A DNA stretch of 64,000 nt from a virus (taxonomy: Duplodnaviria; Caudoviricetes), in the IMG/VR virus record IMGVR_UViG_3300032281_000616, positions 138,206 to 202,205 of that record; one strand, given 5' to 3'. The number at the start of each line of letters is the position of its first letter. Position 1 is the stretch's first letter. Positions 5,667-27,432 of this stretch are shown here, piece by piece. Both the position numbers and the translations under genes were made by a program. The notes below the pieces were generated by a model. That model did no database searches and was not told the origin of the DNA. It saw nothing but the letters and a program-made list of their open reading frames with translations.

Positions 5667-5689
5667 TGTGGTGATTTATTATTTTGAAA

Positions 5690-5801
5690 TCAAGTGATAG
5701 GACTCGAACCTATAATAATGCCGGTTGTGACGATGCGCTCGGGACAGTGCTATTTTACGCTTATCCTATTACTCACTTACCAGTGTGTCTGCCACACTTA
5801 A
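5690..5801 (-). ncRNA. 112-nt tRNA-like RNA (acceptor stem and T-arm, non-canonical middle)
   Basis: TTAAGTG/CACTTGA closing stem; ATAGG-TTCGAGT-CCTAT T-arm. Confidence 0.55.
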
Positions 5802-12968: not shown

Positions 12969-13087
12969 TGACCGCACCCGGACTCGAACCGGGAAGCCTT
13001 TCGGCGGCAGATTTTCGACAAGGTATAATATATTTCACTTATACCCTATTAGAAAGTCTGCGATGTTTACCTTTTCATCATACGGCC
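12969..13087 (-). tRNA. tRNA-Leu (UAA after removal of a 38-nt anticodon-loop insert)
   Basis: GGCCGTA/TGCGGTC acceptor, A73, Leu-type D-loop, GCAGA/TCTGC stem, long variable arm CGCCGAAAGGCTT, T-arm CCCGG-TTCGAGT-CCGGG; 45-nt loop instead of 7. Confidence 0.8.
13016..13053 (-). other. 38-nt putative tRNA mini-intron
   Basis: CTT^TCTAATAGGGTATAAGTGAAATATATTATACCTTGTCG^AAAA; removal restores CUUAAAA. Confidence 0.65.
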
Positions 13088-23211: not shown

Positions 23212-23393
23212 ACAATGTAATTCTTCTTTTGTGCTATCTCAATTGCCCGAGAACTACACGCCAATAGTCTTTCTATTAGTTCAATAGCTATGCATAGTTC
23301 TGTCTTTGCTTGTGCTTCTGTTAGTTCGGATACTAACTTAACACCATATTTGGGATTATCTACTTGATAATTTGACCAATCTTTTTTATTCAT
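23208..23393 (-). CDS. hypothetical protein
   Basis: ORF. Confidence 0.6.
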   Translation of the reverse strand: MNKKDWSNYQVDNPKYGVKLVSELTEAQAKTELCIAIELIERLLACSSRAIEIAQKKNYIV

Positions 23394-23400
23394 AAAGAGG

Positions 23401-23520
23401 TGGGTGGGTTAACTCATAATTGGTATATTCCAGCTAGGGTCACTCCATAACATCAAGGCGTCTGTCTTTACGTTTTTGACAAAAACTTGAAAACTGGATA
23501 TATACTTCATATGCCACCCA
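23401..23520 (-). ncRNA. structured RNA closed by TGGGTGG/CCACCCA
   Basis: terminal stem; internal GTATAT(A)TCCAG/CTGGAATATAC helix. Confidence 0.4.
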
Positions 23521-23529
23521 TTAAAAAAT

Positions 23530-23645
23530 TTTAAGTATATCAAATTCCTCTCTCATATGTATCAGGAGACTCTCCTAGTAGAGCTATGGCCATAGATACT
23601 TCGGTATTGATGTCGATGATAAACACTCCGAAGAGCATACTTAAA
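23530..23645 (-). ncRNA. structured RNA closed by TTTAAGTAT/ATACTTAAA
   Basis: 9-bp terminal stem; CTC-TTCG-GAG and AGGAG-AGT-CTCCT hairpins. Confidence 0.4.
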
Positions 23646-23648
23646 TGA

Positions 23649-23799
23649 TTGAGTGTGTGGAATTCGAATCCACGATTAACAGCTATAGACCATTTTGGGT
23701 ATATAAGGCATTCTCAACGTTCCCGAATACCTTATATATTATTCCCTCTCAGAGTTTTCGAATTACTCCAACCTCGTATCCACAGAGGATTACACTCAA
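23649..23799 (-). ncRNA. 151-nt tRNA-like RNA with 8-bp acceptor-like stem and T-arm
   Basis: TTGAGTGT/ACACTCAA; GTGGA-TTCGAAT-TCCAC; 14-bp internal stem TATATAAGGTATTC/GAATGCCTTATATA. Confidence 0.6.
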
Positions 23800-23805
23800 A
23801 TTATT

Positions 23806-24138
23806 TCACACATTCACATCTTCCCAACCAAGATGACCCTTGAGGGCAACATCTTCATATGGAAGATCCTTGAAGTATTTGATACAACGCTTTTCAAGGT
23901 TCTCAAAAGCTTCAAGGACAGATGCTTCACGATCCTTTACCGCAGGGAGTTTATAAGCTGGGGCTAGAGCGCGAGCAATCGCAATCTTTTCACCATGTTT
24001 TTTATCCCACTTATCTAGTCGAGTATTACATAGAGAAAAACCGTAATTGATTTTTCCTTCATGTTTGATAGCAACAGCAATTCCTTTCGGTTGGTTGGTT
24101 TCAGTGTTGCGAATGTATGTTTTGATAATGTCTTGCAT
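23806..24138 (-). CDS. hypothetical protein
   Basis: ORF plus motif. Confidence 0.7.
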   Translation of the reverse strand: MQDIIKTYIRNTETNQPKGIAVAIKHEGKINYGFSLCNTRLDKWDKKHGEKIAIARALAPAYKLPAVKDREASVLEAFENLEKRCIKYFKDLPYEDVALKGHLGWEDVNV

Positions 24139-24159: not shown

Positions 24160-25158
24160 TCACAGATGAACAGTTGTAAGTCCATCAGTAGTTGTCCAAT
24201 ATTCTCCAAGTTGTTGAAGTGCATTCAATACTTGTTCCTTGGTCGCCCAATTAGGAGAGAAAATATTTTGGATTTGTCGAATAGTTACTTCTGTGTAACC
24301 TTCATCCCTCTTCTTAGTGAGATAATTATCAACCTTTGTTACAAAGGCATCTAATTCCTTAACAAGATCGGGAACAATTGTATTTTCTCCATCCTCATCA
24401 ACAACGGGTGCTGTAATTTCTTCTACAAAGTCTGACATAACTTCATATTTACACACACGAACCTTTTGACAATTACAATCAGATGGAACTGATACAACAT
24501 CAGCAGGATTGATCTTAACTACAATTAGTTTAGAGGCAAATCCCCTAGCATAATCAAGAGATCCAGCATGAAGACCGAATGAACAATGCTTTTCACGATT
24601 ATCATCAACATCACGACGACGAACTTCAATAACAGATCCTACTCCATTATAAATTTGTCCATCAGAATTAACATAACCCTGAATAACCTTAGTATTCAAA
24701 TTTCCATGTGACGAAAAATAGTTATAATTGACACCCTTATAGGCAAGGAAGCAACCATCTTCTGTGAGAGGTAGTTCCTTATAGTCTAGGAATTCTGTCA
24801 ATTCCTTCACACTCTGAGCACTTGGATTTTGCTCTAGGTTAGCCCAGAACTTCTCAAAGTGTTCCAATGGGAGTCCATCAGCGATGATAGACAAAACCTT
24901 ATCTGAGAAAGCTTTAGGAAGCTTCTCGCCCTTATAGAAGATTTCTTCACCTTGGATATCAAATCCTTCAGTTTCTTCGATAACCTTATCAGCCTTGACG
25001 ACCTTATTAAGGATCGCCTCGACCTCTGCTTCTTGCTCATCTTTTGGTAGTTGAAAGACTTTGATAATTTTTGGATATCGTTGATCAGTCTTCTCAACGC
25101 GGATATTCTTTCCGTTAATAAAAAGAATAATTGCTTCTGTGTTAATTGCGTATTTCAT
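24160..25158 (-). CDS. rIIB: rIIB-like protein
   Basis: FLAYKGV, DDNREKHCSFGLHAG, VKINPADVVSVPSD; follows rIIA. Confidence 0.8.
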   Translation of the reverse strand: MKYAINTEAIILFINGKNIRVEKTDQRYPKIIKVFQLPKDEQEAEVEAILNKVVKADKVIEETEGFDIQGEEIFYKGEKLPKAFSDKVLSIIADGLPLEHFEKFWANLEQNPSAQSVKELTEFLDYKELPLTEDGCFLAYKGVNYNYFSSHGNLNTKVIQGYVNSDGQIYNGVGSVIEVRRRDVDDNREKHCSFGLHAGSLDYARGFASKLIVVKINPADVVSVPSDCNCQKVRVCKYEVMSDFVEEITAPVVDEDGENTIVPDLVKELDAFVTKVDNYLTKKRDEGYTEVTIRQIQNIFSPNWATKEQVLNALQQLGEYWTTTDGLTTVHL

Positions 25159-25193
25159 AATCTATGTTTAGTATATCTTAGTGTTTTATAATG

Positions 25194-25436
25194 TCAACGG
25201 TTCATATTTGATTTAATTCCACCAACAGTCCTACGATACTTACCAAGAATATCATAAAGTGGATCTTGGTTCATCATAAGGAATGTCGCTACATCAGTAG
25301 CGGATAGAGAACCTTGACCTTTACCAGATGATTGTAGAAATCCTCTGATATTAAGCATCAGTTCATGTTGTTCAGCTTGTAGACGATCCATAAATAGTTT
25401 ACCGTCCTTAGTTTCGTATGATTTGACTTGCTTCAT
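25194..25436 (-). CDS. hypothetical protein (start MKQVKSYET)
   Basis: ATG 6 nt after motif. Confidence 0.7.
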   Translation of the reverse strand: MKQVKSYETKDGKLFMDRLQAEQHELMLNIRGFLQSSGKGQGSLSATDVATFLMMNQDPLYDILGKYRRTVGGIKSNMNR

Positions 25437-25566: not shown

Positions 25567-27432
25567 TTATTTTGTTGTAAGGATTTTACGCAGATCTTCT
25601 CGTGTAATTTTTGTGTTGTATGTTTCAATACTAGACAAAACCCTACCTCGGAAAGAATTTTCCTTCAAAATCTTATTCTTGACCATATTCAATCTAGTCA
25701 ACTTTGATGGATTTTTTCCAATGACCTTGATCAGTCTTTGAGATGGATGGATTCTAAACATCGCACTTTTAACACGATATTCGGCATTCTCCATATCTCT
25801 TTTGGCTTGCTCAATGACATTGAGCTCAGCGCAGCGTTTTGTATATTCTGGTGAGTTAAGCTCAAACCAACCCAGTTCGAGAAGTTGTTCTTTCATCTTC
25901 TTAGAATTACAAACCCAATAAGGATTATTAACACCACACTCAGAAGTCAATCCAATAACGCGCTGTCTAAGGTATGAGATACTATCAATAGATTTTTCCC
26001 ATCCATCTACGATTTCAACACCGTTGAAAGACTTATCAGTTACATGTTCATCCAATTCTTCAGCAGTGAAATTTCTCTTGTGACCATTGAAATACACAAC
26101 ATACCTAACCTCATTAGGATCTTTGGCTAGTTTGGGTAAACCAAGTTTCTTAACGTCTACAAATGTTACATCAGAAACATCCAAGGTATCGGTTGATAAA
26201 ATATCACCTTTATTAAGCATCCAAACAATTTGTGTATTTGGAAACAACCCAGCAATATATTGATCAAGACGCTTCACCCAACCTTTGTATGACTTGATAT
26301 CTGGAATCTGATACACCACATACTTACCTGTCGTTTTATTATGACCATACCCAGTGTGAATATAATCTAGACATTTTTGAATTTTATAAGTATCTGGAAA
26401 AGTATTAGAGAATGAGTATCTGAACCACTCACCTTCATAGTATGAATTATGCTTATTTTCTAAAATCGCTTCCCCAAATTTTGGTGTAACAATCTTGGAT
26501 CGATCTTCATCACTAAGTTGAACTATGGCATCAGTGATTTCATCCAGAACCTTTTTATTGTTTGGAGTATCTTCAATACTTTCACGAGAAATTGGCACAG
26601 TCAATTTACCGATAGGAACATCCACTACAATCTTACCCAGAGGGTTCACAACCTTGATATCGGATCGCATATTGTAAACAATCCCACCCATACGAATGGC
26701 TACATAATCAGGAGATGTCCAAAATGTGCTTTGGTATAAGTTGATGGTATAGTCCCCGATATCCTTAGTTAGGAGAGGTTGAATAGGAGTATGTTCAACA
26801 TCATATTGATCTGTAAATTTAATATTTGCATTCGGTAGAAAGCGTTCCACGAAAGATGCTGATTCTGTAGAGAAATTGTAGTAGTTTTTGTTTACATCTA
26901 GTGATACCTCCAAACCCGATTCTGTTGTCGGTTCTGGATCTGATACACGATAGATTTCTCCTACAGATAAACCATTGTCACCAGCACCGAGAATACAAGC
27001 GTATTGAGTTTTTAATCCTTCATGATATGAGGTGATGTAGAATGAATCCGAGACAGCAAATGGTGACAATGCACCTACACCAAATCCACCGACTTGGTTA
27101 TTATTGTTTCTCTTATCAGATCCACCATACATACCATAAATGGTTCTGATAGACTCCTCACTAAGTCCCTTAGCGAAGTCCCTAGAACTCCACACATATT
27201 GACCATTGACATTCTCAAGCTTAACCTCTACAGCTTTGTCGATACCATACTTGATATGTTCATCCTGAGAGTTTGTGATAGTCTCACGGATACATGCGAG
27301 GGTTTTATTGGAGTAAATCTTATCGCGTAAAAATCCAGCGATCATATCTTCAGCACCCGAAGCTACTCCCATTTTTGAAACGTTCATGTCTTCCGATGCT
27401 ATGGTGGGTGAATTCTTAAAGTTTAATTTCAT
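25567..27432 (-). CDS. rIIA: rIIA-like protein (GHKL ATPase N-terminus)
   Basis: LRDKIYSNKTLACIRETITNSQDEH, RDFAKGL, GGFGVG. Confidence 0.85.
   Translation of the reverse strand: MKLNFKNSPTIASEDMNVSKMGVASGAEDMIAGFLRDKIYSNKTLACIRETITNSQDEHIKYGIDKAVEVKLENVNGQYVWSSRDFAKGLSEESIRTIYGMYGGSDKRNNNNQVGGFGVGALSPFAVSDSFYITSYHEGLKTQYACILGAGDNGLSVGEIYRVSDPEPTTESGLEVSLDVNKNYYNFSTESASFVERFLPNANIKFTDQYDVEHTPIQPLLTKDIGDYTINLYQSTFWTSPDYVAIRMGGIVYNMRSDIKVVNPLGKIVVDVPIGKLTVPISRESIEDTPNNKKVLDEITDAIVQLSDEDRSKIVTPKFGEAILENKHNSYYEGEWFRYSFSNTFPDTYKIQKCLDYIHTGYGHNKTTGKYVVYQIPDIKSYKGWVKRLDQYIAGLFPNTQIVWMLNKGDILSTDTLDVSDVTFVDVKKLGLPKLAKDPNEVRYVVYFNGHKRNFTAEELDEHVTDKSFNGVEIVDGWEKSIDSISYLRQRVIGLTSECGVNNPYWVCNSKKMKEQLLELGWFELNSPEYTKRCAELNVIEQAKRDMENAEYRVKSAMFRIHPSQRLIKVIGKNPSKLTRLNMVKNKILKENSFRGRVLSSIETYNTKITREDLRKILTTK

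Follow-up and report, generated by a model that had tools for sequence, protein, structure and literature searches.

Although the species 1 and species 2 RNAs of phage T4 were described long ago, no function has been assigned to them (PMC3014915). Species 1 RNA, the product of rnaC, is 139 nt long and lies at 70908–71046 of NC_000866, the T4 record, which annotates it as a small stable RNA; Rfam holds no family for either rnaC or rnaD. Its long hairpin, which rises from a 3-bp base (AGG/CCU), is enclosed by an acceptor stem of 7 bp and a T arm of canonical form with the loop UUCGAAU; a second, short hairpin stands just before the T arm, and NCA rather than CCA follows the discriminator. The RNA described here resembles T4 rnaC in each of these respects, with GGG/CCC in place of AGG/CCU at the base of the long hairpin. 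It also comes from T4-like phages, measures about 140–150 nt as the T4 RNA does, lies among tRNA and tRNA-like genes, and falls outside Rfam. We refer to it as domain 1, and it constitutes a conserved, undescribed tRNA-mimic RNA family in a small clade of uncultured T4-like phages.

The window, that is, the whole stretch of DNA analysed, comprises 64,000 nt at the end of a virus record that is 202 kb long and has direct terminal repeats. The source phage has no close cultured relative, and the GenBank phage collection contains no match either to the DNA of the block that holds domain 1 or to the adjacent gene, orf110. The neighbourhood of the block is T4-like and is read from the minus strand throughout, in the following order:

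25567–27432, minus strand: open reading frame of 621 aa, at the position where rIIA is expected
between the 621-aa frame and rIIB, minus strand: tRNA-Ile gene
25170–25197, minus strand: sigma-70-like promoter match upstream of rIIB, TTGACA-16-TATACT (a consensus match only, at 11 of 12 positions)
24160–25158, minus strand: rIIB
23806–24138, minus strand: orf110, the upstream 110-aa gene, with no assigned function; it precedes the RNA in 4/4 loci, and its stop codon lies 7 nt ahead of the RNA in the window
23649–23798, minus strand: domain 1, the conserved element, a 150-nt tRNA-shaped RNA measured from position 1 through the discriminator base
23530–23645, minus strand: domain 2, a 116-nt insert bounded by the 9-bp inverted repeat TTTAAGTAT/ATACTTAAA
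23401–23520, minus strand: domain 3, a stem-enclosed spacer directly upstream of the 61-aa gene
after the RNA block and before the Thg1-like gene, minus strand: genes of 61 aa and 51 aa
22234–23034, minus strand: Thg1-like gene (PF04446, E = 3e-28)

The gap between the gene end at 23806 and the gene start at 23393 contains no credible minus-strand open reading frame, in agreement with the first-pass annotation of this DNA; its only frames are short, at 44 aa (from a TTG start) and 32 aa. The same annotation had divided the gap into three tandem structured RNAs, and the closing stems on which it relied are all present in the sequence. The pair TTGAGTGT/ACACTCAA contains the T arm GTGGA-TTCGAAT-TCCAC and a 14-bp internal stem with one G.U pair, the pair TTTAAGTAT/ATACTTAAA contains a small UUCG hairpin, and TGGGTGG/CCACCCA closes the last of the three.

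Relatives of the locus were found through orf110, the protein product of which has 13 relatives in a large protein collection. An alignment of orf110 proteins (A1) was used to retrieve two loci from IMG/VR (L002 and L003) and two from metagenomes (L004 and L005), and a scan of IMG/VR with orf110 returned the L002 and L003 contigs and nothing else. A homologue of domain 1 lies directly after orf110 in three of these loci (L002:4341–4490, L003:4370–4515 and L004:3342–3492), and these three sequences together with the window make up the domain 1 alignment (A3), from which the covariance model R1 was built. In L005, the orf110 relative is followed by other tRNA and tRNA-like genes rather than by domain 1 RNA. 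Two tRNA-like genes missed by ARAGORN occupy L005:416–575 after the orf110 homologue, and CCA is encoded in both; the T loop of one is AUCGAAA, and the other, with the anticodon UCU, seemingly lacks a D arm. Domain 1 RNA is absent from the more distant rIIB relatives L019–L024, and in L021, the one of these that was inspected, different genes follow rIIB. A scan of IMG/VR with a pattern for the 3' part of domain 1 again returned the L002 and L003 contigs, the rest being chance matches rejected by R1, and a pattern scan of prokaryote genomes yielded 42 matches, all of them due to chance. A search with R1 identifies exactly one copy of domain 1 in each of the three phage records G000 (which contains the window), G001 (the L002 phage) and G002. 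In L002, an unrelated open reading frame starts 18 nt after domain 1, which thus stands alone.

Domain 1 takes the form of a cloverleaf enlarged by two extra arms, V1 and V2, and its parts in the window are as follows:

23792–23798, minus strand: 5' strand of the acceptor stem, UGAGUGU, pairing with ACACUCA at 23650–23656; 7/7 pairs are 100% paired, 3 of them with double changes
23772–23788, minus strand: D-like arm, in which CCUC and GAGG flank the loop UGUGGAUAC, which has GG
23751–23769, minus strand: anticodon-like arm, a 5-bp stem and the 9-nt loop AAUUCGAAA, with the invariant UCGAAAA at 23755–23761; compensatory changes occur in 3/5 stem pairs
23697–23746, minus strand: extra arm V1, comprising a hairpin of 14 bp (23700–23738) on a GGG/CCC base; its apical loop, GGGAACGUUGA (23714–23724), includes the invariant ACGU at 23717–23720
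23678–23694, minus strand: extra arm V2, the short hairpin AAUGGU-CUAUA-GCUGUU, located where a class II tRNA has its variable arm; 6/6 pairs are 100% paired
23657–23673, minus strand: T arm GUGGA-UUCGAAU-UCCAC, abutting the 3' strand of the acceptor stem
23649, minus strand: discriminator A, followed by UCA at 23646–23648

Comparison of the four homologues provides evidence supporting this fold. The whole 412-nt block folds marginally better than its shuffles (z = -1.98), and domain 1 alone reaches z = -4.68, with 0 of 200 shuffles folding as well. RNAalifold predicts 40 pairs from the alignment (n = 4), and compensatory changes are found in 19 of them. When alignment cells are scored, 97.5% are paired, against 38–47% if the partners are slid by 1–3 columns, and the 19 double-change pairs compare with 0–3 in these slid controls; none of 500 shuffles reached the observed values. 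The T arm has a canonical 5-bp stem and a 7-nt UUCRANY loop in 4/4 loci, the V1 hairpin measures 14–15 bp across the four loci, and the pairing of V2 is kept through changes from U.G to C-G and from G.U to G-C or C-G. The stem of the D-like arm is almost invariant, so that covariation is uninformative there, and RNAalifold favours an alternative pairing, AUCC with GGAU. Several pairs of domain 1 are an invariant U.G or G.U, possible only in the minus-strand sense, so that domain 1 is transcribed the same way as the genes around it. Across loci, domain 1 RNA is 66–79% identical and the adjacent coding DNA 64–78%, with third codon positions at 40–46%; this conservation above neutral sites indicates that domain 1 is under purifying selection.

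The V1 loop has a feature of its own. The invariant ACGU is flanked by A and U in three loci and by U and A in L003, so that it represents either a tetraloop with a covarying closing pair or a preserved 6-nt palindrome (AACGUU/UACGUA) able to form kissing dimers. Within domain 1 RNA, the only complementarity between loops is the palindromic UCGAA/UUCGA, which is not kept in L003, and possible antisense targets of its loops in the phage genome are limited to 9–11-mers, at chance level.

Domain 1 matches no Rfam family at the gathering score or at E≤10, with tRNA, tRNA-Sec, tmRNA and Y RNA all uncalled, and the remainder of the block is equally empty against Rfam 15 at both thresholds. ARAGORN does not call the block as tRNA or tmRNA. 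The suggestion that the block contains an undescribed non-coding RNA family thus holds for domain 1, where covariation backs the fold, and for domain 1 alone.

The division into three structured RNAs does not survive for domain 2. Its fold is no better than that of shuffles (z = +0.54), it has no counterpart in L002, L003 or L004, and it is single-copy in the genome; on these comparisons, domain 2 is apparently a recent, lineage-specific insertion. For domain 3 the case is mixed. Its fold in the window has z = -2.99, but the only sequence with which it aligns, L004:3496–3622, folds at z = +0.59. The 6-bp closing stem is kept between the two, with 2 compensatory pairs, and the interior is not conserved. 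A small open reading frame in domain 3 encodes 33 aa in the window and 15 aa in L004, the frame being broken by indels, and the small frames of domains 2 and 3 were rejected as genes because they are not conserved. In L003, the domain 1 homologue is immediately followed by a second tRNA-like RNA (L003:4593–4706), which has a variable hairpin of ~36 nt, an anticodon-like loop of 8 nt and the T arm GCGGT-UUCGAUU-ACCGC. Domain 3 may be the leader of the gene that follows, closed by a stem and weakly conserved, and, since L003 has this second tRNA-like element at the same place, possibly the relic of a second tRNA-like gene.

Domain 1 RNA almost certainly does not decode codons. As in a tRNA, a 7-bp acceptor stem is stacked on a 5-bp T stem with a UUCRANY loop in 4/4 loci, and the pairs covary. 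A decoding tRNA would also have a 7-nt loop with U33 and a constant anticodon. Here, the loop is AAUUCGAAA in the window and in L002 (9 nt in each), AGUCGAAA in L004 (8 nt) and AUCGAAA in L003 (7 nt), with UCGAAAA invariant in all; the L003 loop is a counterpoint, being a legal anticodon loop. The variable region of ~76 nt, with two hairpins, compares with 4–5 nt in class I tRNAs and a single arm of at most ~25 nt in class II tRNAs. Neither ARAGORN nor the Rfam tRNA model RF00005, even at E≤10, recognises the native sequence. When the ~76-nt insert is removed in silico and ARAGORN is relaxed, L003 is called as tRNA-Ser(CGA) and L002 as tRNA-Arg(UCG), with the window and L004 uncalled; the anticodon is thus not constant between close relatives. 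Finally, CCA is encoded in 5 of the 9 tRNAs that ARAGORN calls in this phage, whereas N73 of domain 1 RNA is followed by UCA in 4/4 loci.

The likeness to a selenocysteine tRNA drawn by the first-pass annotation from an 8+5 stack of acceptor and T stems is not supported. U(-1) can pair with N73 in 4/4 loci (N73 = A, A, G, A), which would give a possible eighth pair. U(-1) is also the usual leader base at bacterial RNase P sites, so that a 7/5 reading is equally consistent. The other features of tRNA-Sec are missing: the loop holds UCGAAAA and no UCA anticodon, the D stem has 3–4 bp rather than 6, and RF01852 gives no match at E≤10.

We consider it moderately probable that domain 1 encodes a small RNA that is tRNA-shaped, stable and non-decoding and whose hairpins bind a putative partner, and domain 1 is probably descended from a class II tRNA gene of the long-variable-arm, Ser-like kind. 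The promoter match upstream of rIIB, judged by its consensus, is likely the start of a transcript that covers rIIB, orf110 and the RNA, and no terminator-like site was found between that match and the RNA; domain 1 RNA would then be co-transcribed with rIIB and orf110. Its intact top half, with a 7-bp acceptor stem, a T arm and the GG of the D loop for the elbow, would make it a substrate of RNase P. The host enzyme would cut the 5' end, the 3' end would be trimmed and possibly given CCA, and the product would be a free, stable RNA of ~150 nt, like T4 species 1 RNA. The tRNA body would serve as a scaffold for processing and stability, and the working surfaces would be the three projecting hairpins, comprising the invariant loop UCGAAAA, the invariant ACGU on its 14–15-bp helix, and the short V2. 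The partner bound by these hairpins would most likely be a protein that recognises tRNA or binds RNA, and the orf110 product is the obvious candidate.

Several other explanations were weighed against this reading of domain 1 as the gene for a stable small RNA. It is unlikely that the element is a purely cis-acting processing signal, in which the fold recruits RNase P and 3' processing, splits the rIIB-orf110 mRNA from the downstream genes, and leaves an excised piece with no function. Such a signal would fit the position of the RNA, 7–8 nt past the orf110 stop codon in 3/4 loci with further genes close behind, and the finding of neither a promoter nor a terminator of its own; it would also preserve a tRNA-like top half, and the acceptor stem and T arm are indeed the best-formed parts. 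However, a minimal acceptor/T-arm helix would suffice for RNase P, and here the D arm, the anticodon-like arm and the two extra hairpins also covary and the loops hold the invariant UCGAAAA and ACGU. These compensatory changes, which occur in every helix, together with the invariant loops and conservation above neutral sites, render a decaying tRNA pseudogene or a chance structure extremely improbable, even though tRNA finders fail to recognise the element.

A working, aminoacylated class II tRNA, Ser-like or Arg-reading, with a hugely expanded variable region and sometimes an expanded anticodon loop, is also improbable, and somewhat more so than a cis-acting signal. It would explain the full cloverleaf with its elbow, the location of V2 at the class II variable-arm position and the Ser and Arg calls obtained once the insert is removed, and the same phage possesses both a 96-nt tRNA-Pro(UGG) with a long variable arm and a nucleotidyltransferase of the PF01743 family, which includes CCA-adding enzymes. 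It would not explain a loop of 7, 8, 9 and 9 nt, an inferred anticodon that differs between close relatives, native sequences that ARAGORN and RF00005 miss, UCA for CCA in 4/4 loci, or the 3-nt spacer before the D stem in 3/4 loci. Very unlikely is a tRNA gene with a protein-spliced insert, whose GGG...CCC hairpin would be excised as the hairpin mini-intron of tRNA-Leu is. The same genome does have a tRNA-Leu split by a 38-nt hairpin, and UCG|AAAA occurs both at the 3' junction of that intron and in the domain 1 loop. The domain 1 insert, however, is located in the variable region and not in the anticodon loop, its removal still leaves an irregular anticodon loop, and a BLAST search of G001, which is 96% complete and carries the RNA, turns up no copy of the mini-intron tRNA-Leu. 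Domain 1 RNA may serve as a tRNA decoy, a role offered earlier for the block. We assign a low probability to a natural 'tRNA scaffold' that acts as decoy or substrate for an anticodon-loop enzyme, whether a defence anticodon nuclease or the enzyme that cuts the tRNA-Leu mini-intron, or that forms a dedicated RNP with the adjacent 110-aa protein; were either true, it would also hint at the purpose of T4 species 1 RNA.

Candidate partners were sought among the genes of these phages. The orf110 protein matches nothing in Pfam or PHROG, and fold comparison gives nothing informative. Its model (pLDDT 80.5) gives as best matches a Foldseek hit to Rv2632c at E = 0.046, a 'dsRBD-fold' lead from Atlas at 0.82 and a VIA-align Z of 4.9; all of these structural matches are too weak to use, and on them the assignment of orf110 as an RNA-binding protein was rejected. 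The Thg1-like gene, which lies beside the RNA in the window and in L004, was rejected as a partner because it is absent from G001, which bears the RNA. The tRNA-His(GUG) of the phage (G000:C1:119927–120001, outside the window) has a eukaryote-like A73 and a T at -1, with G-1 not encoded. This combination explains the Thg1-like gene better than domain 1 RNA does, and the enzyme probably adds the extra 5' nucleotide to this tRNA-His.

The earlier proposal that the block is the trans-acting partner of the mini-intron was likewise abandoned. Complementarity is no better than with shuffles, and no copy of the tRNA-Leu that contains the mini-intron is detected by BLAST either in G001, where the RNA is present, or in G002. 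The motif UCG|AAAA forms the 3' junction of this tRNA-Leu's 38-nt hairpin mini-intron (window 12969–13087) and also the 3'-side motif of the domain 1 anticodon-like loop (23755–23761), at the same structural position, a coincidence with a chance of ~1%.

The phage and its relatives carry further unusual tRNA genes and tRNA-like elements. The tRNA-Pro(UGG) at G000:C1:119750–119845, outside the window, is 96 nt long and has a long variable arm of 9 bp, which gives it a class II shape unusual for proline; it scores 22.9 bits with R1. A second oversized tRNA-like element of 113 nt is found at 5689–5801 of the window (minus strand), with the acceptor TTAAGTG/CACTTGA and the T arm ATAGG-TTCGAGT-CCTAT, and the L002 phage has a 113-nt R1 match of 22 bits at G001:C1:20572–20684. 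The PF01743-family nucleotidyltransferase, a family that also includes poly(A) polymerases, is encoded at G000:C1:131849–132214, outside the window, in a 512-aa frame, and is absent from G001 and G002.

Among described tRNA-shaped RNAs, domain 1 RNA resembles the class II tRNAs (Ser, Leu, bacterial Tyr and Sec) and the allo-tRNAs (PMC5389517) in its cloverleaf shape and in the extra arm that separates the anticodon arm from the T arm, and, like a tRNA-Ser, the L003 loop AUCGAAA would read as anticodon CGA. It differs from the class II tRNAs in that its variable region is not a single arm of at most ~25 nt, its loop length is not fixed at 7 and CCA is not encoded. The YrlA and Y RNAs bound by Ro60 (PMC4201824) are likewise non-coding RNAs that mimic tRNA and possess both D and T arms. 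However, the ends of domain 1 RNA lie in the acceptor stem, whereas the acceptor end of YrlA is closed, and a gene for Ro60 (TROVE, PF05731) is absent from G000, G001 and G002, although the control genomes did give matches; the Y-RNA likeness suggested earlier is therefore not supported. The tRNA-like domain of tmRNA similarly closes an acceptor stem and a T arm around a large insert, but domain 1 RNA has 150 nt rather than ~360 nt, contains no tag reading frame and no pseudoknots, and draws no tmRNA call from ARAGORN or Rfam.

T4 species 1 RNA is comparable in architecture, and the first-pass annotation had cited the T4 species I/II RNAs as tRNA-like background. Membership in the same family is not borne out by covariance models in either direction. 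R1 scores T4 rnaC at 11.2 bits (E = 0.3), below ordinary tRNAs (15–23 bits). The reverse model R2, built from five T4-type rnaC sequences (T4, IME523, KM16, KaAlpha and NM4.3; alignment A7), finds nothing in the window and its relatives at E≤10 with default filters; with filters off, nothing exceeds 5.6 bits, and the best minus-strand match is to the T arm alone, at 4.1 bits. The T4-type RNAs are unlike domain 1 in lacking D and anticodon arms, in having the acceptor CGGUUCG/CGUUCCG with two conserved U.U mismatches, and in their invariant loops TTGACG and CGTCAA, both missing from domain 1. Because the models fail both ways and the T4-type RNAs have these mismatches and no D or anticodon arms, the relation is one of design and not of demonstrable descent, that is, a shared architecture by analogy. 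The sequence GGAACGTT, common to domain 1 and T4 rnaC, was dismissed as a chance match because it is not conserved within the T4-type family. In that family (T4 rnaC at L006:2909–3047, and L008–L011), the two most conserved internal motifs are the apical sequence of hairpin 1, TTGACG, and the loop sequence of hairpin 2, CGTCAA. Their perfect 6-nt complementarity suggests that the two hairpins make a kissing contact through their loops.

Standard tRNA finders and Rfam miss genes of this kind. Domain 1 represents a second family of the T4 species 1 design, the top half of a tRNA with extra hairpins, in distant uncultured T4-like phages, and its invariant UCGAAAA and ACGU loops offer concrete targets for mutation and pull-down studies. 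The recurrence of one design, with no detectable homology, in distant phages suggests that 'tRNA-scaffolded' small RNAs are a recurring phage device rather than an oddity of T4.
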